Assembly (NCBI GenBank): GCA_028712505.1
Contig: JAQTQC010000005.1
Location: 7,051-71,050, forward strand
DNA length: 64,000 bases
Direction: 5' to 3'
Origin: Candidatus Omnitrophota bacterium
Lineage (GTDB): Bacteria; Omnitrophota; Gorgyraeia; Gygaellales; Profunditerraquicolaceae
Part shown: piece after piece, positions 18,001 to 63,400 of the stretch
Layout of the letters: each line of letters opens with the position of its first letter
Numbering within the stretch: position 1 is the stretch's first letter
The notes under the pieces: model-generated
Databases searched by the model: none
The model's input: the letters and a program-made list of their open reading frames with translations, nothing else
Told to the model about the DNA's origin: nothing
Made by a program: the position numbers and the translations under genes

Positions 18001-21000
18001 ACAACAAAATCGTTGATACTTCTTCTGTATTTAGCGTTAATGCCAGCGGTAAGCTGGAGATAACCGCTCCAGTAGAAGGCGGCAGATGGGTTGCCGGAGC
18101 CAGATATACGATAAAATGGAATTCCGAGGGACAGGCGCTCAGTTCATCTTCTTTAAGGATAACCTATACTGCGGATGGTATCAGCGAAACCTTGATCACC
18201 AACTCTACTTCCAATACCGGAAGCAAGGATTTTACCTGCCCATCGACTACGTTAAATAATGTAAAGATTCGTCTTCGTCAGATAAACGGGGATGTTACTG
18301 CTGAGTCCGGAGCTTTCAATATCGTGGCTGTTCCTTCTCTCCAGTTTGTCTCTCCGGCTGCCAACGACAACTGGGTTGCCTCATTCACCAAGGAGATAAA
18401 ATGGAGCGGAGTTGGGGAAGGGCTTACCAAGGACCTGGTGATCAAATACTCAACCGACGGCGGCTCAACCTACGCTAATACAATTTTTAACTATACCACC
18501 GATTCTTTTGATGAAAAGATTTCAGCCGTAACTACAGGTACAGTTACCAATTATACATTATCATGGGTTGTGCCAGTTAATTACAGCAGCAATGTGAAGA
18601 TAAAGATCGAAGATATGGGGATAATGCGTCTAGTTAGCGGAAGTTATACTCCTTTAAGTCTGGTCAGCGGTAAATTCTCCATAACTGCCCCTCTGGCGAC
18701 TATTGTCCAGCCAGCAGGAGGAGAAGAGTGGATATCCGGTACCGAGCATGATATCATCTGGTCGGAAACAGGTTCTTTGGGTAAAGATATCAAGATAAGT
18801 TATTCTGTTGACGGTGGCGCAACCTACCCTTATGTTATTTTCCAGAATTCTTCCGGCGATTCCACGGTGTATGCTAATTATATAACTGTTGCGGATAATT
18901 TATTCAGCTATAAATGGGTGGTTCCGAATACTATTTCCGCCCAATGCCGTATCAAGGTAGAGGGTCTGTCAAATAGCGGAAACGGAACTTCCCTGGCTAA
19001 TTTCTCGATCAAGCTGCCATCTATTACGATAACGTCTCCTGTAGCTACAGATTTGTGGGCAATCTATGATAGCTCTCGGATAATCACTTGGAATACCGTT
19101 GGTAATGTCAGCGAGCATTTAAAGATAGAATATTTCAAAGATGAATCTACTTCCAAGGTCATATTGGAGGATACTAATGGTCCGATGACTTCTTATAGCT
19201 GGGATGTAACCGAGGATTTCATAGATTATGTTTCGCCAAGCGGCTGGATAAAGATTACGGATTTAAATTCTGAGTCTACCTTTGCTCAGAAGGTTACTGC
19301 TGTATCGGAGCAGTTTGAATTGTCTCTGCCAGGATTTGATATCGATGTCCCGGCGGTTCCCTTGATCACGGGAAGTTCTTATACTATAACCTGGCAGGGT
19401 GTTGGTGCTTATTCTGCTTGCAGCAGCGAATCGGGTAATACTGTACGTTTAGAGTATGGCGTCGGGGATAATCCTACCTGGGTTACTATTGCCACATCTA
19501 CGCAGAATGATGGTTCATATGAAAACTGGACGGTACCCGACAGGCATTCCAGCGATGTCAAATTCAGGATCACGAATAACAGGTATTCCTTTATTTCTAC
19601 TGTCTCCAGCGCCTTCAAGATCATGGGGTCATTCTCGGTTACCAGCCCAGCTGCCGCAACCAAGCTTTTTGTGGGCAAGGAACAGATGATCGAATGGAGC
19701 ACTAACGGTACGATTAATAAAGTAAATCTTTATTATTCGAAGAATGGCGGCTCAACCTGGACTACCCTGGCTTCTAACACTACTAATAACGGATTCTATG
19801 TCTGGATAATACCCGACGCGGTACTCATCGACCGTTCGCCTAATCCGAACATCTATTTCAAGATAGAAGACGCTACCGATGCAGCAGTTTATGCCAGCAG
19901 GCAGCTTACGATAAGTTATTATAAGGTTACTTGGAATGTTATCGATGCCGATGGCTTGGTAGGTGATTTGGACGGCTTAAGCGTAAATACCCTTGATGTT
20001 AGCAATGATAACGCGGTATGGGAAGATAGGACAGGTTTGAGCTGTTCTGCTTCCATCCGGAACGCTGGTATTGATGCCGATGATATAGTGCTCTATTATT
20101 ACCCCGGCCATCTTTATCAGACTACCTGGTCAAGAGACGCTTATCTGGATGCTACTGTCCAGCCTTCGCCGTGGACAGCAGATGCCGACGGTAAAGAATT
20201 TACCGTAACCTTGGCTACTATGCTGGTGACGAAAACAAGGACTGTGTATTCTTCTGTGACATATGATGCTTCGGCAGATACCTTAAGTATACAGTGTTGG
20301 CTGCAGGAAGAGGAAAAGTTATTGACTGAGATAGCCGGGTTGCAGGGGGCACTGGTAATTATTTATGATGATGAGGATAACGAGATTAAGACTTTTGAAT
20401 ACACGGCTGCGCAAGCAGATGCCAGCGGTGTCTTCTGGACAAAATGGGTTAATCCCGGCTTGCAAAGAAATAAGTCTTATTTTGCCCGTTTTAGGATCCA
20501 GTTCGAAGGAGCATTCCATTACGGCGGTAAGACATTTGAGATAAGTTCAGCTTCACAGATCGACGATATTGCCGAATCGGTAAGTGCCGGAGTCGTTGCT
20601 ATCACATCGGCAATTGCCGAAAGCTCTCAGGAGATAAAAGAAAAAATAGAAGAGACAGCAACCGAGACGCAAACTAAGGTGGCTCAGGCTGTCAGTACAG
20701 CTCAGGCATCGATAGAGGGCACGGTTACGGTTATCGGTGAGGAAAATAAGGCTGCGATCGGTAGCGCTTCAGCGGCGATAAGAGAAAAAGTCGGGAAAGA
20801 ATCCTCCAGCCGTATATTAAACGGAGAGGCTTTTATTAAATCAGGGAATAAATTAAAGATTCGCTATCAGACTGATTCCAAGTTAGCTCCGGAAATAGAT
20901 GTATATGATCCTAAAAATATTCAGCGTATAACTAAAGGCGTAATGACAGAGGTTGGAGATACGGGTGTTTATGAATATGAGGTCAATTTCTTGAGTGGCT

Positions 21001-22169: not shown

Positions 22170-22317
22170 GAGAGAAGTTTGATTGCCTGAGTAAAGGCAA
22201 GTAAGTGTTTTAGTTTCTTAGGGGGTGTTCCGGACAGAGGGGCAGCCCCTATTTAATGTATTTTGTCTAGACCCATAAATTCGGCAGGATTGCGTCAAAA
22301 TAAAATATCTTCTGTTC

Positions 22318-22346
22318 TTGATTTAAAATTTCTAATGTGGTAAAAT
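22318..22346 (+). promoter_or_regulatory. candidate sigma70-type promoter (TTGATT-17-TGgTAAAAT) ending 4 nt before the ATG at 22350, implying a leaderless or near-leaderless mRNA
   Basis: -35 TTGATT at 22318-22323, 17-nt spacer, extended -10 TGGTAAAAT at 22338-22346. Confidence 0.3.
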
Positions 22347-22349
22347 TTT

Positions 22350-23126
22350 ATGATGAAATCCTGGGTTAGCTGGGTGTTATTGAGTTTATTCTTATTGTAT
22401 CCTTTAGAGGCTCCTGGCGCAGATGTTTCCTGGAATAATGTAGAAAAAAGCAAACATTTCCTTATTTATTTTCAGGATGCTCCTGCTGAATATATCAACC
22501 GCCTGGTGCGGGAGGCAGAACGCTCTTACAAGAATATTACCGAGTACCTGGGTTTTGTGAGGTTTGATTTCTGGATCTGGGATAACCGCTGTAAGATTTT
22601 CCTCTATCCCGACGCCGATACCTATCTGAAAACTACCGGAGTTATCGGCTGGTCAAGAGGGCATGTCCAGGTAGTAACAAAAGAGATCAGTACTTATATC
22701 TGGCAGGAAATGTTTTTTGATACGATTCTTCCTCATGAGATCGGGCATATCATCTTCAGGGAATTTGTCGGCTACAGCAAGGTGTTACCTCTCTGGCTTG
22801 ATGAGGGGGTGGCTTGCATGCAGGAGTATGAGAGCAATGAGCGTTTGGCCACCGCTAAATGCCTGGTGAACTTGAAATTATACACGCATTTGGATGATTT
22901 ATCCAAGATTCAGGATTCCGGGGTTATTATACCTTTTATTTTTTATAATGAATCTGCCAGCCTGGTGGATTTTCTCCTGAGGAGATATGGCAGGGGTAAA
23001 TTTGTTGATTTCTGTCGTTCTCTGCGTGATGAGCCTGATTGGAAACAGTCTCTCAGAGGTGTCTATAGATTAAAGAATCTGGATGAACTGGAAAGAAACT
23101 GGGTTATGGACTTAACTGAAAATTAA
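22350..23126 (+). CDS. secreted zinc metallopeptidase, peptidase-MA-like (HEIGH ... WLDEG)
   Basis: N-terminal signal-like segment MMKSWVSWVLLSLFLLYPLEAPGA. HExxH motif HEIGHIIF followed by WLDEGVA, as in Peptidase_MA_2 family proteins. Confidence 0.55.
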   Translation: MMKSWVSWVLLSLFLLYPLEAPGADVSWNNVEKSKHFLIYFQDAPAEYINRLVREAERSYKNITEYLGFVRFDFWIWDNRCKIFLYPDADTYLKTTGVIGWSRGHVQVVTKEISTYIWQEMFFDTILPHEIGHIIFREFVGYSKVLPLWLDEGVACMQEYESNERLATAKCLVNLKLYTHLDDLSKIQDSGVIIPFIFYNESASLVDFLLRRYGRGKFVDFCRSLRDEPDWKQSLRGVYRLKNLDELERNWVMDLTEN

Positions 23127-23144
23127 AGTTGGAGGATTGAATTA

Positions 23145-24059
23145 ATGAGGAATGAGGTAAAAGCCCGTGAATTTAATGTCTTAATTGTTGAGGACGATGA
23201 TAGAACATTTAAAGTTATCAGCGATGGGCTGACGGTTAACCCTGAATATAAGCTGCACCGGGTAACTACCGGGCAGGAAGCGATCAACCTGGCTAAAGAG
23301 GGTTATTTTGTCGCTATTATAACTGAGATGCAGATCGGTGATATGAACGGGATAGAATTAGTCCGCCGGCTTAAGAAAATAGACCAACGAATTAATATTA
23401 TCGGCCTGACTGTCTATGCCTTTGTTAATTTAGGCGTAGAGGCAATGAAGGAAGGGCTTTATGCGTATCTGATGAAGCCGTTAAATACCGAAGAACTGAA
23501 TTTAGTTTTAAGGCGGGCCATCGAAAATACATTTCTTTTGATCCAGGCAGGCCAGAGGAAGTATTATCAGGATATTGCGACAATGGATGGCTTGACCGGT
23601 GTTTATAACCATCGGCATTTCCATGAAATGCTGGATTGGAATATCTCGCATTTAAACCGTTCCCCCCAGGCATTTTCAATATTCATCATTGATATCGATG
23701 ATTTCAAAAAATACAATGATACAAAAGGTCATGTAGAAGGGGACAAGGTATTGCATAACTTCGCGCAGTTATTAGTCAGCTCCACCCGGGATAATGACAT
23801 GGTTTTCCGATACGGAGGAGAAGAGTTCGCTGTAATTTTATCTCAGACAGATCAGTTGAGTGCCCAAAAAGCGGGTGATAGGCTTTTGGCAATAGTAAGA
23901 AGCAGGATGCCTGTGACTATGAGCGTAGGTTTAGCTAGTTTTCCGATGAACGCTCAAATTAAAAGCGATCTTGTTGTGCGCGCTGATAAGGCTCTTTACC
24001 GGGCTAAGAAAACAGGTAAAAACAGGCTGTGTACTTATGATGAGAAGATAGACATATGA
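23145..24059 (+). CDS. response-regulator receiver domain fused to a GGDEF diguanylate cyclase (intact GGEEF and RxxD I-site; Glu in place of the phospho-acceptor Asp)
   Basis: REC-like N-terminus (VLIVEDDD ... LTVYAF ... YLMKP) but FVAIITEMQIGDMNG where LLDLMMPGMDG is expected. C-terminus carries DGLTGVYNHRHF ... RDNDMVFRYGGEEFAVIL ... ALYRAKKTGKNR. RBS GGAGG upstream. The TGA stop overlaps the atpE ATG (ATGA at 24056-24059). Confidence 0.8.
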   Translation: MRNEVKAREFNVLIVEDDDRTFKVISDGLTVNPEYKLHRVTTGQEAINLAKEGYFVAIITEMQIGDMNGIELVRRLKKIDQRINIIGLTVYAFVNLGVEAMKEGLYAYLMKPLNTEELNLVLRRAIENTFLLIQAGQRKYYQDIATMDGLTGVYNHRHFHEMLDWNISHLNRSPQAFSIFIIDIDDFKKYNDTKGHVEGDKVLHNFAQLLVSSTRDNDMVFRYGGEEFAVILSQTDQLSAQKAGDRLLAIVRSRMPVTMSVGLASFPMNAQIKSDLVVRADKALYRAKKTGKNRLCTYDEKIDI

Positions 24060-24268
24060 AAAATCTAACTATTATCCTGATTATGTTGATCAGCACCTTA
24101 GGGCCCTCAGCTGTTATTGCAGCAGTGGGTTTTTCCGGGGTTAAGGCAATCGGAAGAAACCCGTCGGCAGCTCCTAAAATATTAATTTCCATGGTTTTGG
24201 CTTTTATTTTTGCCGAAGCTATAGCTGTAATCGGGCTTTTGGTGGTATATAACTTGTTTGGGCAGTAA
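24056..24268 (+). CDS. atpE: F-type ATP synthase subunit c (proteolipid), 70 aa
   Basis: Two-helix hairpin with the loop GRNPSAAP and the conserved carboxylate in helix 2 (IFAEAIAVIGLL). Confidence 0.8.
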   Translation: MKNLTIILIMLISTLGPSAVIAAVGFSGVKAIGRNPSAAPKILISMVLAFIFAEAIAVIGLLVVYNLFGQ

Positions 24269-24313
24269 ATAAATTCTTAAATTTGTATTCAGTGTTCCCT
24301 CGCTTATACGCTC

Positions 24314-24334
24314 GAAGATTTCTTTGAAATCTTC
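24314..24334 (+). promoter_or_regulatory. perfect 9-bp-stem hairpin GAAGATTTC-TTT-GAAATCTTC in the atpE-atpF spacer
   Basis: Exact palindrome read from the sequence. Candidate mRNA processing or stability element. Confidence 0.4.
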
Positions 24335-24384
24335 TTCGCAAGCTCGGGATTTCGCTAAATAAGAGCATAAGGTGCTCAAATTCG

Positions 24385-24423
24385 CACATTGACTTATGTT
24401 CACTTTGTTCCATAAGTCAAGTG
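24385..24423 (+). promoter_or_regulatory. second hairpin in the atpE-atpF spacer (core TTGACTTATG / CATAAGTCAA, 12-nt loop, CAC/GTG extension with one bulge)
   Basis: Inverted repeat at 24389-24398 and 24411-24420. Lies 22 nt upstream of the atpF RBS AGAGGAG. Confidence 0.4.
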
Positions 24424-24444
24424 CTCATTTAAAGAGGAGTTCAT

Positions 24445-25203
24445 ATGCTGGTATGGCAGATAATCCTTATACAGATCGCTACTTTTACTTTGATTGTTTT
24501 ATTCCTCCGTTGGCTGCTTTACAGCCACATTAGCCGCGCTTTAGACCGCCTGCAAAGATTGAATCAGCAAAACCTGGAAAAAGAAAAAGTGCTCAAGGAA
24601 GAGTTTGAGCGGGCAAGGAAACAGGCAGAGGTTGAGATCCAGCAGGGTAAGCTTGAGGCTGAGAATATAAAAGAGCAAGCTAAGGAAGAAGGTGAGAAGA
24701 CCAGGAGGAACCTGCTTGAGACATCTAAAGAAGAAGCTAAGCGTATTGTTAGCGAGGGGATGAGGGATAGCCAGAGAAAGTACAATGATTTGCTTTTGGA
24801 TATGCAGGATAAGGCGGTGTATCTGGCAGCGGATATCGTAAAATATATTTTTACAGAGAGGATCCGTAAGGTGTTGCATGAGCAAGTAATCGATGAATTG
24901 ATCGATGATGTTTCCGGCTTGGATAAAGAAAAAATACGTGCTCAGGGAGATAAGGCGGAAATCGTCTGCGCTTATTCGCTTGGGGAAGCGCAAAAGCAGA
25001 GATTGCAGCAAGCCTTATCTAATAAGCTAGAACGTAATATTATTATTGAAGAGACGATTGACCCGGAGATTGTCGGGGGTCTGATTATACGCTTAAGCGG
25101 ATTTGTGGTTATTGACGGTAGTATTAGGAATAAGTTCAAGAGGATAGTTCCGATAATGAAGGATAGGGCCAGAGAAGGCATTGGGCAAACAGGGAAGGGC
25201 TGA
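24445..25203 (+). CDS. atpFH: F-type ATP synthase subunit b fused to subunit delta (b-delta fusion)
   Basis: N-terminal TM helix plus b-like LRWLLYSHISRALDRLQRL and a long charged coiled coil. The C-terminus (IIIEETIDPEIVGGLIIRLSGFVVIDGSIRNKFKRI) matches the delta/OSCP C-terminal consensus. Confidence 0.7.
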   Translation: MLVWQIILIQIATFTLIVLFLRWLLYSHISRALDRLQRLNQQNLEKEKVLKEEFERARKQAEVEIQQGKLEAENIKEQAKEEGEKTRRNLLETSKEEAKRIVSEGMRDSQRKYNDLLLDMQDKAVYLAADIVKYIFTERIRKVLHEQVIDELIDDVSGLDKEKIRAQGDKAEIVCAYSLGEAQKQRLQQALSNKLERNIIIEETIDPEIVGGLIIRLSGFVVIDGSIRNKFKRIVPIMKDRAREGIGQTGKG

Positions 25204-26669
25204 TGCAGGAGATTAATTTAAAACCATTAGAAATAAAGGATGTCGGCACAGTCAGGGAGATCAAGGGCGGTGTCATAAAAATAGACGGGCTTGCTTCTTG
25301 CGTGAACGGACAATTGATTGAGCTTGCCCCTGGTCTGATGGGGATGGTTATTGGTTTTACCAAGAAGGACGTCTTGGTCTTAGTGCTTGGCGATGAGAAT
25401 AAGGTGCATATCGGCGATACTGTTTACGGAGAGGAAGGTGTTTTTGAGGTTCCTGTAGGCAGTAACTTTCTTGGCCGGGTGGTCAATACCTTTGGCCAGC
25501 CTCTAGACGGTAAAGGTAAGATCGAGGGTGTGGATACTTATCCGATATTTCGCAATGCTCCCGGGGTGTTGGACAGAGCCCCTATTCTCGAACCTTTTCT
25601 TACTGGAACCAAGATTATCGACACGTGTATACCTTTAGGAAAAGGGCAAAGGGAGCTTATCCTTGGGGACAGGGTTACTGGCAAGACTACCCTGGTTATC
25701 GATGCAATCATCAACCAGAAGGGTAAAGACGTAATTTGCATATATTGCTGGATAGGCGGTAGTCAATCTTCGTTTTTAAAAATCATGGAGCAGTTAAGGC
25801 TAAGCGGAGCTATGGAATGGACTATTGTGGTTACGGCATCCGCTTCAGCTTCTCCCGCAGAGCAATATCTGGTTCCTTATGCAGCTGCTGCCCTGGGTGA
25901 GTATTTTATGGATCATGGCCGGGATGTCTTTTGTGCCTTTGATAATTTAAGCCGGCATGCCTGGATTTATCGCGAGATCTCCCTGCTTTTAGAGAGAAGC
26001 CCGGGTAGAGAGGCTTATCCCGGAGATATGTTTTACACCCATTCACAGCTGATGGAGAGGGCGGGTAAGTTGAATGAAGAAAAAGGCTCAGGTTCAATGA
26101 CATTCCTGCCGATTGTAGAAACCCAGGAAGGTGATATTACCGGACTCATCCAATCCAACCTTGTTTCTATAACTGACGGCCAGATTTATTTAAGCGCCTC
26201 TCTTTTTAATGAAGGTTTTAAGCCGGCTATTGATTTAGGGCTTTCGGTTTCGCGTATCGGAAGCAAGGTACAGTGTGATGCGATAAAGAAGGTAAGCCGT
26301 TCACTAAAAAGAGAATTTGCCCTGGCTAAAGAATTAGCCGCGCTTACTACCATTCGAACCAAATTGTCCGCTGATATCGAACTTAGGCTTAAGCGGGGAC
26401 AGGCTCTGAAAGATTTGCTTATGCAGGATAAGTCAAAGCCTCTTTGCGTAGAGGAGATGATTGTTCTTTTTTACGCATTTAATAAAGACCTGCCTGAGAT
26501 CTTGGAGGAGTCGCAAAGAGAAAACTTTAAGCAGAACATATTCGCTTATTTGCTCAGAGAACATCCGGAATTAGTCGAAGAACTTACTATCCAAAAGCTT
26601 CTTACCGGAGGAATTGAAAGAGGTTTGGATAAGGCGTTTGAGGAATTTTTTGCCGCGGCAAACAATTAA
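25203..26669 (+). CDS. atpA: F-type ATP synthase alpha subunit
   Basis: GDRVTGKTTLVIDAIINQKG Walker A in alpha context, plus the typical alpha C-terminal helical region. Start overlaps the atpFH stop (TGATG). Confidence 0.85.
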   Translation: MQEINLKPLEIKDVGTVREIKGGVIKIDGLASCVNGQLIELAPGLMGMVIGFTKKDVLVLVLGDENKVHIGDTVYGEEGVFEVPVGSNFLGRVVNTFGQPLDGKGKIEGVDTYPIFRNAPGVLDRAPILEPFLTGTKIIDTCIPLGKGQRELILGDRVTGKTTLVIDAIINQKGKDVICIYCWIGGSQSSFLKIMEQLRLSGAMEWTIVVTASASASPAEQYLVPYAAAALGEYFMDHGRDVFCAFDNLSRHAWIYREISLLLERSPGREAYPGDMFYTHSQLMERAGKLNEEKGSGSMTFLPIVETQEGDITGLIQSNLVSITDGQIYLSASLFNEGFKPAIDLGLSVSRIGSKVQCDAIKKVSRSLKREFALAKELAALTTIRTKLSADIELRLKRGQALKDLLMQDKSKPLCVEEMIVLFYAFNKDLPEILEESQRENFKQNIFAYLLREHPELVEELTIQKLLTGGIERGLDKAFEEFFAAANN

Positions 26670-26685
26670 GTTTTAAGGAGTAAAA

Positions 26686-27576
26686 ATGATTCCATTAGTC
26701 GTATTACGCAAGGATTTGGCGTTTAATAAGGTAATGGAAAGCATCATTGAGGTGTTAAAGGGCGTCGCTGCCACTGAGTATTTTCATCTTCAGGGTAAAA
26801 GAAGGAGTTTTGATGAGTTTGAGGGTTATTTAAGAGACCTGTTTGCCCAGGTAGATGTCGGTGATTTCAAACATCCGTTCTTGAACTCTGAGCCTTCTGC
26901 GAAAAATATTGTCTTAATAACTTCCGATTCCGGTTTTCTCGGGGAGCTTAATATGTCGGTAGTAAATTATGGTTTAAGCCAATATCAGAGTGGCGATTTA
27001 CTGACGGTTGTGGGCAAAGAAGGAACAAGATATATCAGCGAGGATGATTATAAGTACACAAGTTTTCCGGGTATTGACGATGATATTTCTTATAGCGGGG
27101 TAATCAGATTAAGAGATCATATCATAAAGGAATTCTTTAGTAAAAAGCTGAGCGGCACGGTTATAGTCTATCCGCATTTTGTTTCTTTTTCTGTGCAGAA
27201 GATAGAACAGTTTCAGTTGTTCCCTTGCAGGTTTTTATTCCCCCAGGAATCCGGTGTCCCGGGTGACAGTAAGGCAAAGTTCTGGGAGTCCGGAACCGAT
27301 GAAAAGATAATCCTGGACTCATCATTAAAAACAACGGTGGAATATTTAGTCAGGATTTGGATCGGTCAGTTAATTAATCTTATATATTGGGAAAGTAAGC
27401 TTTCTGAATGGGCAGCGCGGGTGATGCATCTGGAAAGAAGTACCAATGAACTTAGGAACCAGCAGAAGAAGATGCGTTTACAGTATTTCCGCACTATGCA
27501 CGAGCGAAGTGATAAAAATACCCGGGAAATCTTTGTCAGCCGTATGGCTTTGATCAAGACCGGGGCTGTATCTTAA
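26686..27576 (+). CDS. atpG: F-type ATP synthase gamma subunit (divergent)
   Basis: Position between alpha and beta, size 296 aa, gamma-like N- and C-terminal helices. Assignment rests mainly on synteny. Confidence 0.6.
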
Positions 27577-27590
27577 GAAAGAGGAGCTTT

Positions 27591-29000
27591 ATGCAGGAAG
27601 GCAAGATAGTCTCAGTCCAGGGGCCAATCGTAGATGTGGAGTTTCCCGCGGATGTATTATTCCCGGCTATATACGATGTTATTGAGACCGAGACTTTTGA
27701 CGGTCACCGGATAGTGCTTGAGGTGGTAGAATATTTGAGTAAATCTGATTCGGATAAGACAAATACCATGAGGTGTATTTGTTTAAATCCGAATTTTGGT
27801 TTGCGTAGGAACGCCCGGGCAATTGCCAAAGGCTCAACTATCAGTGTACCCGTAGGAGAAGCAACCTGTTCCCGGATATTGAACGTTTTGGGTGAACCGG
27901 TAGATAAGAAAGGGCCAGTTAATGTCGGCCCGGATAAGATCAGGCCCACACATAGAAAACAGCAGATAGCTACCGTTGATACCGGGGATGGCAAAGAGAA
28001 GAAGTTTGAGGTTATGCAAACAGGCATAAAGATGTTCGATCTCCTGTTTCCTCTAATTAAAGGTTCCCGGAACGGTATCCTAGGAGGCGCAGCTTGCGGC
28101 AAGAGTGTAATCATCTTAGAGCTTATGCATAACATTATCAAGATGCAGAAAGGCTATTGTGTTTTTACGGGAGCAGGAGAGCGGACCAGGGAAGGTAATG
28201 AGTTATATTATGAACTGGAGAAACAGGATATCTTGAATAGGTCATCTTTGGTATTTGGGCAGATGAACGAATCTCCCGGAGCCAGATTTGAAATAGTAAA
28301 CACAGGTTTGACTATCGCGGAGAATTTTGCCGAAGAAGGGGATGATGTTCTGTTGTTTGTGGATAACGTATACAGGTTTGCCCAGGCAGGTACAGAGTTG
28401 TCTACCCTTTTAGGCAGGATTCCTTCCGAGACAGGTTATCAACCTACGTTGCCTTCAGAGATGGCTGAATTTCAGGAGAGGATTCGTTCAGTCGGACAGG
28501 CTTCAATTACGGCAATGGAAGCAGTTTATGTGCCCTCCGATGATTTAACTGATCCGGCAGTAGTCTGTATATTCAGTTATTTGGATTCTATAGTTATCTT
28601 GAGCCGGCGTTATGTTCAGTTAGGCTTATTCCCTGCTATCGATGCCTTGACTTCGTCTTGCGCCTTTCTTGATCCGATGATTATCGGAAAAAGGCATTTC
28701 AAGACTGCTCAGGATGTTTTAAGAATCCTTAACCGGTATGAGGAGCTCAGGCGTATTGTTGCTATTGTAGGGGTAGAAGAACTTTCTCAAGGGGATAGGA
28801 CTATATTCGAAAGAGCAGCTAAGCTGCAGAATTTTCTTACCCAGCCGTTTTTTTGCGCCGAGGCTTATACAGGAAGAAAAGGAGAATATGTCCCTTTAGA
28901 GGCGACTTTAGAGGGTTGTGAAAGGATAGTTTCCGGCCAGGTGGATAAAGTTCAGGCGGAAAAATTTTATATGATTGGCGCACTGCTAAATGACATTTAA
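27591..29000 (+). CDS. atpD: F-type ATP synthase beta subunit (Walker A GGAACGKS; DELSEED replaced by EELSQGD)
   Basis: [20 protein letters not shown]-terminus. Catalytic GERTREG motif, [11 protein letters not shown], and P-loop [11 protein letters not shown]. Confidence 0.85.
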
Positions 29001-29020
29001 ATTTTAGGGGAGACTAAAAA

Positions 29021-30748
29021 ATGTTAATTAAAATTGGGCAGATGTTGATTAACAAGAAATTGATTACCTCTGAGCAGTTAGAAGAGGCGCTTACCGAGCA
29101 GACCAGGACGGGTGAGCTCTTGGGGGTGATTTTGATCAAGAAAGGCTTCTTGAACCAGGAGGATTTTTTAAAAGTACTTTCGGAGCAATTTAATGTGCCT
29201 TTCATAAAGTTAAAAGAAACTACCATTGATCCTTTGGCGATCAAGAAAGTCCCTGCCAAGTTCGCCTGGTATTACAAGGTTATGCCGGTAAAGTTTGTAG
29301 ATAATAAATTACTGATTGCTTCTTCCGATCCTTTACGTTCCCTGGATGACTTGAGAATATTTTTAGGTTATGATTTAAAGCCTGCCCTGGCTGAAGAAAC
29401 TGAAATTATGGAAGCGATTAAAGAGCATTATGGTGTAGGAGCCGAGACCGTAGAGGGGATTATTGCTAAGGCGCCCAAGGATGTCAGAGTTCCAGACGCC
29501 TCAAAAGAAACAGGCAGGATCGAGGATATTGAAAAGTTAGCCGAAGATGCCTCAGTGGTCAAACTGGTAAATCAGATTATCTTGGAGGCTTATCAAAAAA
29601 GAGCTACTGATATCCATATTGAGCCATTCAGAGGCAAGATGAGTATAAGGTATCGTATCGACGGTGTACTTTATAACGCGAATGTACCGGCGGATATTGA
29701 GCGGTTTTTCCTGGCCATTATTTCGCGTATAAAGATAATGTCCAGGCTGAATATCGTAGAACGCCGGCTTCCCCAGGATGGCCGCGCCGTGATAAAGATA
29801 GGTAAGGAAGAACTGGATCTGAGGATCTCGATTATACCCACGCGTTATGGCGAGGGCATGGTAATAAGGATCCTCCCTATGAGCATGCTTTTTAGTTTGG
29901 AAAGACTGGGACTAGCGCCTGAAGATTTAGAGCTCTTGGCAAAATTGATCAAGAAGCCCCATGGCATAATCCTGGTGACCGGCCCGACGGGAAGCGGTAA
30001 GAGTACCACTTTGTATGGATGTTTGAATGATATAAAAAGCAGCAGGAATAAGATAATTACCATTGAAGATCCTATCGAGTATGAGTTGGAAGGTATAACT
30101 CAGATTCAGGTGGTTCCTGAAATAGGCTTTACTTTTGCTCAAGGTTTAAGAAGTATCTTAAGGCATGACCCGGATATAATGATGGTTGGAGAGATCCGGG
30201 ATTTTGAGACCGCTGAGCTGGCAATCCGTAGTGCCTTGACCGGCCATCTAGTTTTCTCTACCATCCACACCAATGATGCCGCAGGCGCAGTTGCCCGTCT
30301 CTTAAATATCGGTATTGAGCCGTATCTGGCGGCTTCTTCAGTTGAGGCATTTATTGCTCAAAGGCTGGTGCGCTTAATCTGCCCTGACTGCAAGAAAATC
30401 GATACTGACGTACCGGATAATTTCAGGTCATTGATCGGTCAGGATATAGCCAGGAGTGGTGGAGGATTGCAACACTTGAAACCGGAAGAGATCAAGATTT
30501 ATAAAGGCCAGGGTTGCAAGGAGTGTAATTTTACCGGCTATAAGGGCAGGACTGCAATCCATGAAATATTAGTAGTGGATAAGGGGATACGGGAGCTGAT
30601 GCTCAGAAAAGCCTCAACCGATGAATTGCGGGATAAGGCGGTCAGTGCCGGCATGAAAACATTGCGTCTATGCGGATGGAAAAAAGTTATTGACGGTTTG
30701 ACTACCCCTGAAGAGATATTGAGGGTAACCCAGGCAGAGGAGTATTAA
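29021..30748 (+). CDS. gspE: T2SS/T4P assembly ATPase GspE/PilB family (N-terminal GspE_N/MshEN-like domain, Walker A GPTGSGKST, tetra-Cys zinc motif)
   Basis: Motifs GPTGSGKSTTLY, DPIEYEL, MVGEIRD, CPDCKK...CKECNFTGYKGR. N-terminal KIGQMLINKKLITSEQLEEALTEQ. Confidence 0.85.
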   Translation: MLIKIGQMLINKKLITSEQLEEALTEQTRTGELLGVILIKKGFLNQEDFLKVLSEQFNVPFIKLKETTIDPLAIKKVPAKFAWYYKVMPVKFVDNKLLIASSDPLRSLDDLRIFLGYDLKPALAEETEIMEAIKEHYGVGAETVEGIIAKAPKDVRVPDASKETGRIEDIEKLAEDASVVKLVNQIILEAYQKRATDIHIEPFRGKMSIRYRIDGVLYNANVPADIERFFLAIISRIKIMSRLNIVERRLPQDGRAVIKIGKEELDLRISIIPTRYGEGMVIRILPMSMLFSLERLGLAPEDLELLAKLIKKPHGIILVTGPTGSGKSTTLYGCLNDIKSSRNKIITIEDPIEYELEGITQIQVVPEIGFTFAQGLRSILRHDPDIMMVGEIRDFETAELAIRSALTGHLVFSTIHTNDAAGAVARLLNIGIEPYLAASSVEAFIAQRLVRLICPDCKKIDTDVPDNFRSLIGQDIARSGGGLQHLKPEEIKIYKGQGCKECNFTGYKGRTAIHEILVVDKGIRELMLRKASTDELRDKAVSAGMKTLRLCGWKKVIDGLTTPEEILRVTQAEEY

Positions 30749-30752
30749 GCAG

Positions 30753-30992
30753 ATGTTCAAGGTTTCGGTGCTGGACATAAAGACCGCTTCATCTATATTC
30801 CAGGAGTTGGTTTCTCAGGTTGTGCTGCCTGGTGAGGAGGGGGAGTTGTCGATTATGGATTTTCATCAGCCGATTATCTCCTGTCTTAAGGATGGGTTAA
30901 TCCGGATAGATAATACCCCGCCTATATTTATTAAAAGCGGGATTGCCAGTATGCAAGATAATGAGCTAGTGGTATTGGTGGAGAAAAAATAA
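30753..30992 (+). CDS. atpC: F-type ATP synthase epsilon subunit, beta-sandwich N-terminal domain only (79 aa, no C-terminal helical domain)
   Basis: VVLPGEEGELSIMDFHQPIISCLKDGLIRI and FIKSGIASMQDNELVVLVE align with the epsilon NTD (E. coli [28 protein letters not shown]). RBS GAGGAG upstream. Sits 4 nt after the gspE stop and 1 nt before gspF. Confidence 0.7.
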   Translation: MFKVSVLDIKTASSIFQELVSQVVLPGEEGELSIMDFHQPIISCLKDGLIRIDNTPPIFIKSGIASMQDNELVVLVEKK

Positions 30993-30993
30993 T

Positions 30994-32226
30994 ATGCCGA
31001 TATTTGTTTATCAGGCGAAAAAAGGCCCGCAGGAAATTATCGATGGTACGGTGGAAGCCGCAACCAAGGAAGCGGCTGTCAGTAAAATAGAGCAGATGGG
31101 CTATATGCCTATCAGGCTTAGCCTTAAGGAAGGGTCGGCTGTTGGCAATACCGGTAATCTTCAGGGAAATAGGGCCTTTAGTTTCTTTGACCGGATAAGC
31201 TCCCGCGATCTGAATGTTTTTACCGACCAGCTGGCTACTCTGGTTAAGTCTAAAGTGCCGCTTTTTGAAGCAATCAATATACTTTCTTCTCAGACGGAGA
31301 ATCCCAAATTAAAACAAATAATAATCGCCATATCCGGGCAGCTAAAAGACGGCAAGACTCTTTCTGAGGCTTTGAGCAAGTATCCTAAGGTTTTCCCCCT
31401 TCTTTATGTGAATATGGTTCATTCCGGGGAATCCGGAGGGGTATTAGATGAGACTCTGACCCGGTTGGCTAAATTCCGCGAAGAGCAGGAAGAGGTGAGG
31501 GCTAATATAAGCTCAGCCTTGGCATATCCGATATTTATATCAATAGTTGGATTGATTACCGTCATTATCCTGCTTACTTTCGGTATTCCGCGTTTAGCCT
31601 CCATGTTCAGCGAAAATAAACAAGCCCTGCCCTTACCGACTAAGTTCTTGATTTCAATGAGCAGCGGGATCAGGAATTACTGGTATCTCGGGGTTATATT
31701 CATAGGCTTGGCTGTTTTTATACTGCGGCAAAAACAGGCAATTGAAAAGAATAAGGCTGCGATTGATAAATTTATATTAAAGTTGCCCCTGATCGGGAAT
31801 TTTAGCAAGAAGGCGATGCTGGCGGAATTTACCCGGACATTTGCCTTACTTCTGGCTAATGGGGTGCCGGTGCTTGAGGCCTTGCAGATAACCGTGCCGA
31901 CAATTAATAACGAAATGTTCAGGATAGAATTGGAGAAGGTGCATAGTGATATTGTCGTGGGTACCCCCCTTTCCCAAAGTATGAAGAAATCCAGCTGGTT
32001 TCCTCCTTTTCTGACCAATATGATTGCGGTCGGAGAAAGAGGGGGGAATTTGCAGGAGGTATTATTGGAAGTGGCGGTTTTTTACGAACGCGAAGTAAGA
32101 AAAATAAACAAGATAATGACTTCTTTGCTTGAGCCGGCGATAATTTTGATCATGGGCTTAATCGTAGGGTTTATCGTTATAGCAATGCTCCTGCCTATTT
32201 TTGAAATAAATATGGCGGTACAATAA
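30994..32226 (+). CDS. gspF: T2SS/T4P inner-membrane platform protein GspF/PilC family
   Basis: MPIFVYQAKKGPQEIIDGTVEAATKEAAVSKIEQMGYMPI N-terminus. Two GspF repeats with three TM segments. Confidence 0.85.
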   Translation: MPIFVYQAKKGPQEIIDGTVEAATKEAAVSKIEQMGYMPIRLSLKEGSAVGNTGNLQGNRAFSFFDRISSRDLNVFTDQLATLVKSKVPLFEAINILSSQTENPKLKQIIIAISGQLKDGKTLSEALSKYPKVFPLLYVNMVHSGESGGVLDETLTRLAKFREEQEEVRANISSALAYPIFISIVGLITVIILLTFGIPRLASMFSENKQALPLPTKFLISMSSGIRNYWYLGVIFIGLAVFILRQKQAIEKNKAAIDKFILKLPLIGNFSKKAMLAEFTRTFALLLANGVPVLEALQITVPTINNEMFRIELEKVHSDIVVGTPLSQSMKKSSWFPPFLTNMIAVGERGGNLQEVLLEVAVFYEREVRKINKIMTSLLEPAIILIMGLIVGFIVIAMLLPIFEINMAVQ

Positions 32227-32241
32227 TTAAGGGGGATTCAA

Positions 32242-32658
32242 ATGAGGGCAAAAAGCGGTTTTACACTTATAGAATTAATGTTGGTAGTCATAATTCTTGG
32301 TGTCTTAGCAGCGATGGTGATGCCCAGACTGTCCGGACGTTCAGAGCAGGCCAAGGTTGCGGTGGCCAAGACAGATATCAGCGCTAATATAGCGACTGCG
32401 CTTGATCTTTATGAACTGGATAACGGCCGTTATCCGACTACGGAACAGGGTTTGGCTGCCTTATCGACAAAACCGGGAGATCTTTCTGAGGGGGCGAACT
32501 GGAATGGACCGTACATCAAGAAAGAGTCGCAAGACCCCTGGAATAAAGAATATCAATATAAATATCCCGCTACACATGAAGGCCAGGATTATGATTTGTA
32601 TTCTTTGGGTCCGGACGGCATAGAGAGCGAAGATGATATCGGTAACTGGCAAAAATGA
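32242..32658 (+). CDS. gspG: major pseudopilin GspG (T2SS type)
   Basis: Prepilin leader plus GFTLIELM. YELDNGRYPTTEQGLAAL, DPWNKEYQY and DLYSLGPDG closely match the GspG consensus. Confidence 0.85.
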   Translation: MRAKSGFTLIELMLVVIILGVLAAMVMPRLSGRSEQAKVAVAKTDISANIATALDLYELDNGRYPTTEQGLAALSTKPGDLSEGANWNGPYIKKESQDPWNKEYQYKYPATHEGQDYDLYSLGPDGIESEDDIGNWQK

Positions 32659-33100
32659 AGCCTTGGATCTTTTAAACTGTAAGGCGGATGCTGAGCGGCC
32701 AATTCTTCGGCCGCGAACGCATAAAGGTTTTACGTTAATTGAGATAATGATTAGCGTGTCTATCCTTTCCTTGGGGCTTATCCTGATCATGCAGGGGCTT
32801 GCTAAATGTGTAAATATTTTGCGTATTTCCCAGAGCAACCTGGCGGCAACCTTATTGGCCGAGGATAAGATGGCCGAGATGGAAATAGCAGCCAAGCAGG
32901 ATGGTGCAAAGGCATTTCTTGGCGATACAAGCGGGGAAGAGAAATCCGGTAATCTGGAGCTCAATTGGCAGATACGCCTGACTCCGGATGAGGAATACGA
33001 GAATCTAAACCGGATTTTGGCTACTGTCCGTTGGAAAGATGGCCGTAATAACGGCTCAAGTGTTCTTAGCACCTATTTGACGATTTTTAATGATAAATAA
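32633..33100 (+). CDS. minor pseudopilin (GspH/GspI-like); true start uncertain
   Basis: KGFTLIEIMISVSILSLGLILIM prepilin-type N-terminus. The annotated ATG gives an unusually long 31-aa leader. Confidence 0.6.
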   Translation: MISVTGKNEALDLLNCKADAERPILRPRTHKGFTLIEIMISVSILSLGLILIMQGLAKCVNILRISQSNLAATLLAEDKMAEMEIAAKQDGAKAFLGDTSGEEKSGNLELNWQIRLTPDEEYENLNRILATVRWKDGRNNGSSVLSTYLTIFNDK

Positions 33101-33707
33101 AAGAAATAAGAGAATAAAACCCGCAGGGTTTACTCTGGTTGAGTTGATTATCAGCGGAGCGATAATCTTATTGGTTTCGGTAACTGTCTATTCCGTTTTT
33201 GCCAGCGGTATAAATGTTTGGAGAAAGGCAAATCAGTTCCAGGGTAAAGGTCATGCCCTAAGGTTGGTTGTTGAGAAGATGAGCAGGGAGATAAGGAATA
33301 CGTTTAGGTTTTCTACTATTCCTTTTGAAGGCAGCGAGAGTATTGTCTATTTTCCTCAGATCGTTGACAGCCAGCTCAGCAGGGTTATTTATTTTGTTGA
33401 TGAAAAGGAGAATTTTTGCCGCAGGACCCAGAGTTATCCTGAAGTTTTTGAGAAGGGGGAGTCTGGAAAATGTGATATACTGCTTCCCGGGTTGAAAAAG
33501 TTGAGATTTGAATACTGTTATCTTGATAATGCCAGCGGGGAATATGAATGGAAGGATAAATGGGTTAAGGAGGAGCAGGATACTATCCCCCAGGCAATCA
33601 AAGCAGAGTTTACTTTTGAGGGGCAGAACGGAGAAGAGCTAAAGTTTGCTAAGACAGTATTTATCCCCATTGGTACCGGAGAGCAAAAAATAGAACTTAT
33701 CCAGTAA
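33090..33707 (+). CDS. minor pseudopilin (GspJ-like)
   Basis: MINKRNKRIKPAGFTLVELIISGAIILLV prepilin N-terminus, 205 aa. Confidence 0.6.
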   Translation: MINKRNKRIKPAGFTLVELIISGAIILLVSVTVYSVFASGINVWRKANQFQGKGHALRLVVEKMSREIRNTFRFSTIPFEGSESIVYFPQIVDSQLSRVIYFVDEKENFCRRTQSYPEVFEKGESGKCDILLPGLKKLRFEYCYLDNASGEYEWKDKWVKEEQDTIPQAIKAEFTFEGQNGEELKFAKTVFIPIGTGEQKIELIQ

Positions 33708-33714
33708 GGTATTT

Positions 33715-34734
33715 ATGTCCAGGAATGGTATTTATTCTCGCGCAAGTGTATTGATTATTACTCTCTGGGTTTTAGGTTTCTTGACCATCCTGGTGGTTAA
33801 CCTGGGGTTTATGGTGAGGAGCCAGCTGCAATTTGCCGATCACTTTCAAGATAGGTTGAAAATGTATTACCTGGCCCGCGCGGGCATAGAAAGAGCGGTT
33901 GCTGAATTGTATGTAGATGATACTGAAAGCACCGACGCCCTGAATGAATCATGGGCGAATAAGGAAGAATTTTTTAAAGACTTGGCTTTTGGGGGCGGTT
34001 TTATCAGCGTTAGCTATAAGATGAATGACAAAGAAGACCAGGATGAAATAACCTTGTACGGGGTAATGGATGAGGCAAGCAGGATAGATATAAATAACGC
34101 ACCCTCTGAGGTATTGGTGACCTTGTTGGAAAATATCGGTGGAGTAGAAACAGAAGAGGCGATAGATATTGCCGCTGCCATTGTTGATTGGAGGGATAAG
34201 GATGTTGCGCTTTCTACTGGCGGGGCGGAAAGCGATTATTATAAAGGGTTGTCGCCGGGCTATGATTGCAAGAATGGAAATTTTCAGGTGGCCGAAGAGT
34301 TGTTGCTGGTTAAAGGTATGACTGCAGAGATTTTTTCCAAAATCAAGAACCTGATCACTGTCTACGGTACAGTCCAGGTGAATATCAATACTGCAGGTTT
34401 TAACTGTTTTTATGCCTTAGGTTTGAACAGCGACCTTTGCGATAAAATAATTAAATTCCGCCAGGGCAGCGATGAATTATCCGGTACTGAGGATGATTAT
34501 GTTTTTAACGCACCCGTGGAATTGATGAATGTCGGATCTTTGTTTACCAAGGAGGCTACACAGATAAACACCCTGATTTCCAGGAATATGCTTAAGGTAA
34601 AATCCGATATCTTCAGGATTAGCTCCTTAGGTATACTCAAGAATGCCAGGGGAGAGCGTTCCCGCGGGATTGTTTGCGTTTTAAAGCGTCAAAAGGATAA
34701 AAACCCTAAATTATTATATTGGCATGAAAATTAA
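33715..34734 (+). CDS. gspK: GspK-like large minor pseudopilin
   Basis: SRASVLIITLWVLGFLTILVVNL N-terminal segment, about 340 aa, plus MYYLARAGIERAVAEL, typical of GspK. Confidence 0.6.
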   Translation: MSRNGIYSRASVLIITLWVLGFLTILVVNLGFMVRSQLQFADHFQDRLKMYYLARAGIERAVAELYVDDTESTDALNESWANKEEFFKDLAFGGGFISVSYKMNDKEDQDEITLYGVMDEASRIDINNAPSEVLVTLLENIGGVETEEAIDIAAAIVDWRDKDVALSTGGAESDYYKGLSPGYDCKNGNFQVAEELLLVKGMTAEIFSKIKNLITVYGTVQVNINTAGFNCFYALGLNSDLCDKIIKFRQGSDELSGTEDDYVFNAPVELMNVGSLFTKEATQINTLISRNMLKVKSDIFRISSLGILKNARGERSRGIVCVLKRQKDKNPKLLYWHEN

Positions 34735-36226
34735 CTTAGCGGATTTATTTAAGAAACCGGAACAGAGCACAACTGTCTTCCAGATAGATAATAACTGGTT
34801 GAGGTTGATTCAGATAAGGGAGCTTAAGCGGGAGAAAAAGGTCTCGGCGATTAAGGCCATAGAGATCACCAATCTATCCGACGAGCAGATTGCGCTTAAG
34901 ATTTCCGGTTTGGCTGCGGAGCTGAAGATAAACTCGCGGTCTCTTGTGCTTTCCATACCGCGCCATCAGACGACTACCAGGAATCTTGATTTACCTTCGG
35001 CAAATCCGCTCGAGATAAAAGATATGATCGAACTTCAGATCGGCAAGCAGACGCCTTATGCCAGCGATGAGGTGATTAAGGATTACCAGATTTTGGGTAG
35101 TAATGCGGAAGGTTACAGCAAAGTGCTTTTGGTTATTGTCCACCGGGATATTGTCGGCAGGTATTTTAAGGTAATCGAATCAGCAGGGCTAAAAGTGCAG
35201 AAGGTAAGTTTTAGTTCCGAAGGTTTATTGAATTGGAGAAGCCTGGTTTACCGGCAGAAGATAGCGGCTGAAAAGGTACAGATCTTGATCGAGGTTGATT
35301 ATGACGCAAGCGATTTTGAGGTTGTCCTTAATGATCGGTTAGTTTTTGGCAGGAGTATTTCGTTAGGCTTCTCGCAGTTTCCCGGTCAGCTTGATCTTTG
35401 GCAGAAGAAATTTATTGAAGAGGTAAATCACTCGATTTACGCTTACCAGAATGAAATAATCGGTAAGGAGATCGGTAAAATTATAATCAGCCGCCCAAGA
35501 TTAGTGGGGGACAGTTTGGATAAAGAACTCCTGGAAAAGGAGTTCGGTTCGTCAGTGGAGATTATCGATCAGTTTAAAGATATTCCTTTTACCGATGAAG
35601 GCTTGAATTCTTATAATAACTTGGTCAGGACGGATCTATCCTTTGCCGGGCTTCTCGGTTTAGGGTTGCCTGTCACTGAACATAAAATTGACCTTATTCC
35701 CCAGGAGCACCAGATAGGTAAGGCAGTAAAAGAAAAGGGAAAAGATCTTTATCTTATGGGCATATTGCTGGTGTTTATACTGGTTGCAGTCTCCGGAGTA
35801 TTCCTGGGAAGGATGTATAACAAGGAACGTTATCTCGGTCAGCTAAAGCAACGTCTTACTGAGATCCAGGATAAGACTAAGGAATTAAATAATATGGTCC
35901 GGGGCATAGAGACGATAAAAGACCGGGTTTATACAAGGGGGATGTCGCTAAATCTTCTTTATGAGGTGCATAAGGCGATCACACCTGAAATGCATTTGGT
36001 TTCGATGAGTTTTGACGGTAAAGAAACCCTGACCTTGCGTGGACAGTCTAATGAAATGTCGGAGGTTTTTAGCTTTGTAAATAAACTTGAAGAATCCAGC
36101 TATTTTCAGAACGTGAAGATAAAATACGCCACTAAACGCAAAGAAGGGGATAAGGAAATCACGGATTTTGAAATTTCCTGTCCTTTGGCGGACAAATACA
36201 AGGTTGCGGAGAAGTATAAATTATAA
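34724..36226 (+). CDS. GspL-like / PilM-PilN fusion (cytoplasmic actin-like domain, single TM, periplasmic domain)
   Basis: 500 aa with one TM helix (LYLMGILLVFILVAVSGVFLG) near residue 350 and a PilN/GspL-like C-terminal domain. Sits within the gsp gene order. Confidence 0.55.
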   Translation: MKINLADLFKKPEQSTTVFQIDNNWLRLIQIRELKREKKVSAIKAIEITNLSDEQIALKISGLAAELKINSRSLVLSIPRHQTTTRNLDLPSANPLEIKDMIELQIGKQTPYASDEVIKDYQILGSNAEGYSKVLLVIVHRDIVGRYFKVIESAGLKVQKVSFSSEGLLNWRSLVYRQKIAAEKVQILIEVDYDASDFEVVLNDRLVFGRSISLGFSQFPGQLDLWQKKFIEEVNHSIYAYQNEIIGKEIGKIIISRPRLVGDSLDKELLEKEFGSSVEIIDQFKDIPFTDEGLNSYNNLVRTDLSFAGLLGLGLPVTEHKIDLIPQEHQIGKAVKEKGKDLYLMGILLVFILVAVSGVFLGRMYNKERYLGQLKQRLTEIQDKTKELNNMVRGIETIKDRVYTRGMSLNLLYEVHKAITPEMHLVSMSFDGKETLTLRGQSNEMSEVFSFVNKLEESSYFQNVKIKYATKRKEGDKEITDFEISCPLADKYKVAEKYKL

Positions 36227-63397: not shown

Positions 63398-63400
63398 CTA

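Follow-up and report, generated by a model that had tools for sequence, protein, structure and literature searches.

A 64-kb stretch of Omnitrophota DNA (contig JAQTQC010000005.1, assembly GCA_028712505.1; hereafter the window, meaning this whole stretch) carries the genes of an F-type ATPase in one unbroken string with genes of a type II secretion-class pseudopilus, and no gene for the a subunit was found with them. The gene for the assembly ATPase GspE comes next after beta wherever a locus is informative (37 of 37), and none of 98 related loci encodes an a subunit within 10 kb. With moderate confidence, we read this enzyme as an accessory, ATP-hydrolysing rotary motor that is controlled by cyclic diguanylate (c-di-GMP) and tied to a pseudopilus and giant-adhesin apparatus.

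A conserved string of F-type ATPase and pseudopilus genes

Coordinates are window positions, read on the + strand, and genes were assigned by open reading frame (ORF) calling together with Pfam and NCBIfam. Pfam was run on the 40 largest + strand ORFs (at least 120 aa) and one - strand ORF, giving 41 ORFs. Between 24056 and 32226, genes for c, a b/delta fusion, alpha, gamma, beta, GspE, epsilon and GspF follow one another, all with Pfam matches above threshold. The string extends 3' with GspG, a GspI-like protein, GspJ, GspK, a PilM-PilN fusion and, up to 36762, PilO. Co-directional genes also precede c, namely the 3' part of a giant gene, a Peptidase_MA_2-like gene and a gene for a response regulator-GGDEF protein (Table 1).

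A preliminary description of this DNA had listed the same ATPase, gspE and gspF genes in the same order, with gaps of 4 nt from gspE to epsilon and 1 nt from epsilon to gspF, a 79-aa epsilon and neither atpB nor atpI at the locus, and all of this holds. Its range of 1-20 nt for the spacers agrees with the other junctions but not with the one between c and b, which measures 176 nt; over the whole string, spacers run from -26 to +28 nt with that sole exception. What it called atpF/H is indeed b, joined to the C-terminal domain of delta only. It was also right that no terminators intervene, as no terminator-like hairpin was detected in the + strand intergenic spacers of the string, and promoter-like sites there stay at the level of shuffled sequence (31 found, 30.6 expected).

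A genome scan with beta, taking one genome per species, returned 23 loci, and a metagenome scan with the c-subunit alignment returned at least 295 relatives, of which 80 were analysed (L025-L104); 98 related loci were compared in total. The 13 closest loci of the genome scan are Omnitrophota metagenome-assembled genomes (MAGs) that share the gene order of the window, with epsilon likewise lying between gspE and gspF. The host phylum is Omnitrophota: relatives with 82-98% beta identity are all Omnitrophota/Omnitrophica MAGs, and the NCBI names for an identical b/delta protein are Omnitrophota as well. In the distant loci L016-L019 (identities 56-58% for beta, about 31-38% for gamma, about 33% for b/delta and 66-75% for c), the ATPase genes are followed directly by gspE and pseudopilus genes, and gspE likewise comes next after beta in the fragment L015 (beta 61%). 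L016 (CAZSHZ010000071.1) and L017 (DATECO010000165.1) were deposited as Nitrospirota or Nitrospiria MAGs; these labels reflect either transfer beyond Omnitrophota or an error of binning or labelling. Upstream of the ATPase genes, the GGDEF gene is present in 44 of the 98 loci and the C-terminal part of the giant protein in 50, and the Peptidase_MA_2-like gene keeps its position in many.

The position of epsilon is more variable. It lies between gspE and gspF in 19 loci, confined to the subclade of the window, and 5' of c in 47 others, as in the distant L016 and L019. The interleaving is therefore a derived transposition, made in one subclade within an older conserved ATPase-gspE operon, and not a general property. 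The conservation of the interleaving, raised in the preliminary description, is therefore true of the beta-gspE junction and not of the place of epsilon. That epsilon could move into the gspE-gspF junction with the string unbroken is good evidence that both gene sets are read together. Co-expression and functional linkage are supported because gene order is kept in relatives with beta identities of 56-58% and gamma identities of about 31%, and further because epsilon has moved into this junction and beta shares the c-di-GMP module of GspE in some lineages. Thus the co-expression that had been proposed is backed by conservation across divergent relatives, and the energetic coupling proposed along with it is something we infer.

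The same conservation bears on whether the string is an assembly chimera or a chance juxtaposition without functional meaning. The sequence does come from a MAG, and next to the string lies a giant gene whose many repeats make assembly hard; however, the order is found again on 98 independent contigs, which stem from many samples and assemblers and include some of 277-923 kb, and it is kept at protein identities down to 31-58%. Artefact and chance are refuted by this recurrence, and we leave them practically no probability.

Absence of the a subunit from the locus and state of the remaining subunits

None of the 41 ORFs of the window examined with Pfam matches ATP-synt_A (PF00119). A phmmer search of all six-frame ORFs with E. 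coli AtpB found no a subunit in the window or in L001-L019, and the outgroup loci L020 and L021, where the same search did pick up an a subunit, served as positive control. BLASTP with the L020 and L021 a subunits, phmmer and the motif R-[LF]-x-G-N revealed none in the window, L001-L019 or L025-L104; the only matches to the motif were one GspF loop and one 61-aa ORF. A substitute stator was also sought, and no conserved polytopic membrane protein was found within the clusters. Unassigned ORFs with 8 to 11 transmembrane (TM) helices do lie inside two clusters (L044:7321-8649 and L096:12763-14058, - strand), the one in L044 at the place expected for gamma; they are sporadic and not conserved. 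A complex without a is physically plausible, since mitochondria without mitochondrial DNA form F1-c-ring-stalk assemblies that lack subunit a and hydrolyse ATP.

Indirect support for a missing a subunit comes from other genomes. Among 176 complete Omnitrophota genomes, alpha and beta were called in 125 and gamma in only 30; subunits of V/A-type ATPases are common in class Gorgyraeia (preprint 10.64898/2026.06.07.730766). Furthermore, in the portion of the KEGG Orthology (KO) table of Seymour et al. used here, in which genomes 58, 221 and 231 are informative, genome 221 has K02111, K02112 and gsp genes and no K02108.

The catalytic head is well preserved. Alpha scores above the NCBIfam equivalog cutoff of atpA and beta above that of atpD, and their nearest solved relatives among PDB matches are ordinary bacterial F1 subunits. 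Aligned to solved F1 beta, the catalytic motifs of beta are intact, including the P-loop GGAACGKS, the GERTREGNE stretch and the Walker B region, and a DELSEED-like EELSQGD is present. Alpha retains SVSRIG, the motif that we take to hold the arginine finger. Several relatives have two tandem alpha paralogues (L065:10952-13900, L076:6768-9744, L096:4449-7371 and L067), with SVSIIG or SLSIVG in place of SVSRIG in the second; with this replacement, the putative arginine finger is lost there, which suggests a mixed alpha ring.

Other parts of the enzyme have been trimmed. Alpha is without about 14 N-terminal residues (query residue 8 aligns to chain residue 22 in the PDB match); in canonical F-ATPases, this tail binds the N-domain of delta. 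The N-domain is itself lost here, as the PF00213 match of b/delta covers positions 103-168 of the 172 of the OSCP profile and PDB matches span b and the C-terminal part of delta only, so that the full-length delta of a canonical F1Fo is not present. The fusion keeps the TM helix and coiled coil of b. Epsilon consists of the N-terminal beta-sandwich, one of the usual two domains, without the C-terminal helices that inhibit hydrolysis in many bacteria. At the locus, the enzyme is also without the half-channel subunit that turns rotation into ion flux. With the subunits encoded, it has all it needs to use ATP for turning gamma, epsilon and the c ring against a stator anchored by b, and it is free of the epsilon brake.

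The best-conserved protein of the whole cluster is c, a place that usually falls to beta in ordinary F-ATPases. The identity of c across the clade is 64-96%, and its membrane carboxylate Glu54, which aligns to the ion-binding Glu of solved c rings, is invariant. Against L016, L017 and L019, c is 64-75% identical, beta 56-58% and gamma about 31-35%. Fast evolution marks gamma, b/delta and epsilon, whose identities are about 31-48%. The helix-1 glycine motif of c is swapped for LGPSxVIAAVG.

Such a constrained c ring bears on the possibility that the enzyme is an ordinary ion-translocating F1Fo ATPase or synthase with its a gene elsewhere in the genome, its clustering with gsp genes reflecting co-regulation only; it might, for example, provide membrane potential or ATP homeostasis during activity of the secretion system. 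We consider this possible, if unlikely. The conservation of c above beta and its invariant Glu54 are the strongest argument for such a pump, to which can be added the equivalog scores of alpha and beta, their intact catalytic residues, and the N-ATPase b family as best NCBIfam match of b/delta. N-type ATPases are real ion pumps with a long b and no separate delta, and split atp operons exist in other bacteria. However, the genes for c, b, alpha, gamma, beta and epsilon have kept together over great divergence although none of the 98 loci has a within 10 kb, and gamma, b/delta and epsilon diverge quickly. The c-di-GMP repeats on beta in several lineages, described below, fit an accessory machine under the control of signalling better than a housekeeping enzyme, and such genomes usually have V/A-type ATPases. 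In addition, the published alpha phylogeny, in the passages of its source drawn on here, sets the enzyme apart from respiratory Omnitrophota F-ATPases (PMC10066038).

A predicted c-di-GMP layer and comparison with known systems

The GspE of the window bears an MshE-type c-di-GMP motif (NF053729), and binding is predicted from its sequence. The gene just before c encodes a diguanylate cyclase with a GGEEF motif and runs into the start of c, with an overlap of 4 nt at its stop. In this respect the locus resembles MshE/GspE-type ATPases activated by c-di-GMP, with MshEN on GspE and a diguanylate cyclase encoded upstream. Unlike those systems, L016 and L017 (L016:4083-6311 and L017:3378-5582) have a beta of 735-743 aa to whose C-terminus four NF053729 copies are fused, scoring 245.7 bits in L016 and 243.7 bits in L017 against a cutoff of 38. 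The beta of L075:10142-11737 and L099:13369-14964 (531 aa) has a shorter C-terminal extension that matches the repeat region of L016 and L017 by BLASTP and shows an RLGxxL motif. We know of no earlier report of a c-di-GMP receptor module on F1 beta, though the literature was not searched specifically for one.

Fusions also affect the partners of the ATPase. GspE of L102:8645-10876 has an extra C-terminal PilZ domain (31.7 bits against 22.5) besides MshEN, and would therefore carry two different c-di-GMP receptor modules. In L081:2-1729 and L091:958-3054, the upstream diguanylate cyclase is not of the response regulator type; an extracytoplasmic module like the C-terminus of the giant protein, a TM helix and a GGDEF domain are joined in one fusion. 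By these fusions, F1 head, pilus ATPase and giant protein are all joined to a single signalling system. The Rfam searches, a gathering search of the whole window and an E-value search of 22100-24500, gave no match, and thus no c-di-GMP riboswitch.

The type of locus is already on record. In the passages of Seymour et al. 2023, Nat Microbiol (PMC10066038) drawn on here, many Omnitrophota, V. archaeovorus LiM among them, have a non-respiratory F-type ATPase homologue beside type-4a pilus clusters. The two gene sets lie within 10 kb of each other on 57 of 66 contigs, in every Omnitrophota class, and alpha phylogeny groups the ATPase with Mycoplasma Type 2/3 ATPases, apart from the respiratory F-ATPases of the phylum. 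These loci, termed 'symbiotic', share with the window the phylum, alpha and beta beside GspE/PilB-type genes and nearby giant ORFs, and a role in attachment to or motility on host cells was proposed for them. Like them, the window has F-type alpha and beta within 10 kb of pilus/T2SS-class genes on one contig; the paper speaks of a type 4a pilus, whereas by score the window genes are closer to Gsp-type pseudopilins (G, I, J and K). Likewise, the passages used of West-Roberts et al. 2023 (bioRxiv 10.1101/2023.11.21.568195) place type II secretion-like loci next to giant Omnitrophota genes. The locus is therefore one member of the Omnitrophota 'symbiotic' F-type ATPase/pilus loci, published in 2023, and the view of the preliminary description that the arrangement was undescribed has to be given up. 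Only the anatomical details and the c-di-GMP fusions are new: the passages used from these two papers make no mention of a loss of a with c and b kept, of truncated delta and epsilon, of epsilon transposition or of beta-MshEN fusions, and those of Seymour et al. make none of a GGDEF/MshEN/PilZ c-di-GMP layer.

A functional precedent is provided by the Type 2 and Type 3 F1-like X0 ATPases of Mycoplasma, which serve surface machines (PMC3369863, Beven et al. 2012; PMC12994834, Berlureau et al. 2026). These too are accessory F1-derived ATPases of host-dependent bacteria without a recognisable a subunit, and they are encoded beside, and needed for, a surface machine: gliding legs or MIB-MIP antibody cleavage (PMC3369863, PMC12994834). 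Their clusters of seven genes encode alpha-, beta-, gamma- and epsilon-like proteins and three unique proteins, of which two lie in the membrane, with 3 and 12 TM helices, and no recognisable c or b/delta (PMC3369863). In contrast, the window keeps c and b with the C-terminal domain of delta. Membership in the Mycoplasma types was tried and rejected, with scores for the models NF045863/NF045936 and NF045858/NF045934 of 395.7 against 600, 309.7 against 520, 380.8 against 850 and 377.4 against 570; by hidden Markov model score, alpha is nearer canonical atpA. Because the four models stay far under their cutoffs, the canonical models are passed and the Mycoplasma clusters are without c and b, the resemblance appears to be functional and not familial.

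Compared with a canonical F1Fo (atpIBEFHAGDC), the locus has c, b, part of delta, alpha, gamma, beta and epsilon, with catalytic and c-ring residues intact. It differs in having no a or AtpI, in the loss of the delta N-domain, the alpha N-tail and the epsilon C-domain, in the insertion of gspE after beta, and in its flanking c-di-GMP and secretion genes; the complete canonical set, with ATP-synt_A, occurs neither in the window nor in the 98 loci. The N-ATPase, a second, accessory F-type enzyme, is similar in its long b with a delta-like C-terminus and no separate delta, and its genes are reportedly ordered atpDCQRBEFAG, with a, AtpQ and AtpR (Dibrova et al. 2010). TIGR03321 (N-ATPase b) is the best NCBIfam match of b/delta, at 60.8 bits against a cutoff of 224.7; TIGR03324 reaches 494.8 against 750.5 and TIGR03305 463 against 752, and the order in the window is c-b-alpha-gamma-beta without a. 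Membership in the N-ATPases was accordingly rejected.

On the pseudopilus side, the type II secretion system (T2SS) core proteins GspE, F, G, I, J and K are present with Pfam scores mostly above cutoff, and the T2SS equivalogs fall just short (TIGR02533 571 against 630, TIGR02120 377 against 424). No GspD secretin, GspC or prepilin peptidase was found by Pfam between 22350 and 41381. Of the proteins of a type IVa pilus, the cluster has PilM-N and PilO, and no PilT, PilP or PilQ was found in it; the PilB model reaches 553.7 against 675.65, and by score the pilins are Gsp-type.

In type III secretion and flagellar export, FliI is homologous to alpha and beta, FliH to b plus delta, and FliJ to gamma. 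As in the window, a module derived from a rotary ATPase is attached to an export or filament machine, its stalk joins b-like and delta-like parts, and there is no a. FliI, however, is a homohexamer without c ring or epsilon, whereas the window keeps a heteromeric F1, epsilon and c, and its partner, unlike that of FliI-FliH-FliJ, is a type II/type IV pilus-class machine with its own ATPase. This comparison raises the question of whether the F-type complex is a structural and energetic part of the pseudopilus machine, its c ring or gamma/epsilon driving or gating the GspF/PilMN platform or the export or anchoring of the giant protein; it would then be a second independent recruitment of a rotary ATPase to protein export, parallel to FliI/FliH/FliJ. 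The invariant beta-gspE adjacency, the epsilon embedded between gspE and gspF, and the common c-di-GMP receptor module of beta and GspE argue for such integration. In its domain logic, the fusion of b with the delta C-terminal domain matches FliH and YscL. Furthermore, the unusually conserved surface of c suggests an extra membrane partner, and the clusters offer no other conserved polytopic membrane protein that could be a stator. Yet all of this is evidence of genomic association, GspE is already the canonical assembly ATPase, and no known T2SS or type IV pilus requires a second motor; we judge the proposal improbable.

The reading that we favour, an accessory motor, is less committed. The ATPase would not be the chemiosmotic ATP synthase of the cell; it would hydrolyse ATP and rotate gamma, epsilon and the c ring against a b/delta stator. 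Its output would serve the co-encoded pseudopilus and giant-adhesin apparatus, which may be used for attachment to, or attack on, host or prey cells. C-di-GMP from the upstream GGDEF protein would activate GspE through its MshEN motif and, in lineages with MshEN repeats on beta, might also act on the F1 head directly. Such a motor is suggested by the family assignments, the intact catalytic motifs and c Glu, the constant succession of beta and gspE and the lack of a across the compared loci. It is further suggested by the relocation of epsilon, the beta-MshEN fusions, the MshEN and PilZ modules of GspE, and the upstream GGDEF genes. The missing epsilon C-domain, delta N-domain and alpha N-tail are consistent with it, as are the V/A-type ATPases of Gorgyraeia, the KO profile of genome 221, the Mycoplasma F1-like X0 precedent and the non-respiratory label given in the passages used of PMC10066038.

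Several points weigh against this motor. The most conserved protein of the cluster is c, with an invariant membrane Glu, as expected of a ring that still runs against a stator with an Arg and transports ions; a freely spinning ring has no obvious need of Glu54. Alpha and beta are nearer to canonical F1 than to the Mycoplasma motors. The absence of atpB covers the window and, in relatives, 10 kb on either side, not a whole genome. The KO profile of genome 221, in the portion of the table used, counts for little, KofamScan having missed c and b too if that MAG has such a cluster. Finally, the tie between ATPase and pilus machine is known here from genes.

Neighbouring features and biological meaning

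The giant ORF is open at the start of the window, its frame being free of stops before position 75, and on a JGI contig the gene call for the same sequence comes to at least 10,933 aa. Besides LVIVD repeats, the protein has many repeats of about 190 aa and a single C-terminal TM helix. Many relatives encode its last 250-480 aa or so apart from the rest, in a gene of their own just upstream of epsilon or c.

The spacer between c and b is far more stably folded than its shuffles and has no Rfam match. Its hairpin modules are present or absent among close relatives, and L002, L004 and L009 have a spacer of only 12-24 nt. A possible role is to stabilise or process the transcript and so raise the output of the c subunit.

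A second, complete pseudopilus system starts about 25 kb downstream (61742-64000) and continues in L105:9634-20760. It follows a PAS histidine kinase and a response regulator, and consists of PilZ, a GspE paralogue with MshEN, GspF, four or five pilins, PilM and a secretin, with no ATPase genes of the kind described above. The ATPase-linked system is without a secretin of its own; the secretin belongs to this downstream system (L105). In the ATPase-linked string, the pseudopilin block (32242..34734) matches Pfam T2SSG, T2SSI, T2SSJ, T2SSK_1st and N_methyl.

Table 1. Features of the ATPase-pseudopilus string and its upstream neighbours, in window coordinates.
Feature	Position	Strand	Evidence
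3' part of giant surface-protein gene	1..22169	+	LVIVD repeats 235 bits, one C-terminal TM helix
Putative secreted zincin peptidase, Peptidase_MA_2-like, HEIGH motif	22350..23126	+	Pfam 28.7 bits, below cutoff 32.4
Response regulator-GGDEF diguanylate cyclase, GGEEF motif	23145..24059	+	PF00072 66.8 bits, PF00990 139 bits
F-type c subunit, 70 aa	24056..24268	+	PF00137 31.5 bits, cutoff 24
Structured 176-nt c to b spacer, hairpin modules	24269..24444	+	Minimum free energy -50.1 kcal/mol, z = -5.9
Peripheral-stalk protein, b + delta C-terminal domain	24445..25203	+	PF00430 residues 7-133, PF00213 residues 169-234
F1 alpha	25203..26669	+	TIGR00962 536.6 bits, cutoff 484.45
F1 gamma, divergent	26686..27576	+	PF00231 95.1 bits; TIGR01146 66 bits, cutoff 194
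F1 beta	27591..29000	+	TIGR01039 534.4 bits, cutoff 462.85
GspE/PilB-type assembly ATPase, N-terminal MshEN	29021..30748	+	PF00437 427 bits, PF05157 64 bits, NF053729 65.1 bits (cutoff 38)
F1 epsilon, 79 aa	30753..30992	+	PF02823 52.9 bits, cutoff 27
GspF/PilC platform protein	30994..32226	+	PF00482 229 bits; TIGR02120 377 bits, below cutoff 424
GspG	32242-32658	+	Pseudopilin Pfam matches
GspI-like	32633-33100	+	T2SSI 24.9 bits, cutoff 25
GspJ	33090-33707	+	Pseudopilin, Pfam T2SSJ
GspK	33715-34734	+	Pseudopilin, Pfam T2SSK_1st
PilM-PilN fusion, alignment complex	34724-36226	+	Pfam PilM_2, PilN
PilO/GspM, alignment complex	36229-36762	+	Pfam PilO, T2SSM_b

If atpB lies elsewhere, the locus would be an atp operon of ordinary kind, though split in an odd way, that is co-regulated with secretion, and its interest would drop sharply. 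The beta-MshEN fusions predict direct binding of c-di-GMP to the F1 head, which can be tested biochemically without culturing the organisms. A bolder formulation, which we regard as speculative and rather doubtful, is that an a-less F-type ATPase with a constrained c ring has become the c-di-GMP-gated mechanical or energetic module of a pseudopilus-giant-adhesin machine, as a second independent recruitment of a rotary ATPase into an export or fibre-assembly apparatus and a living analogue of a step toward FliI/FliH/FliJ. If the enzyme truly has no a subunit and serves the pilus and adhesin, a rotary ATPase would here be caught converting from an ion-coupled enzyme to a motor of a surface machine, more complete than the Mycoplasma F1-like motors since c ring, stalk, gamma and epsilon are kept. 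It would then bear on the origin of type III secretion ATPases from F/V-type ancestors, and on how ultra-small predatory or epibiotic bacteria power their attachment.

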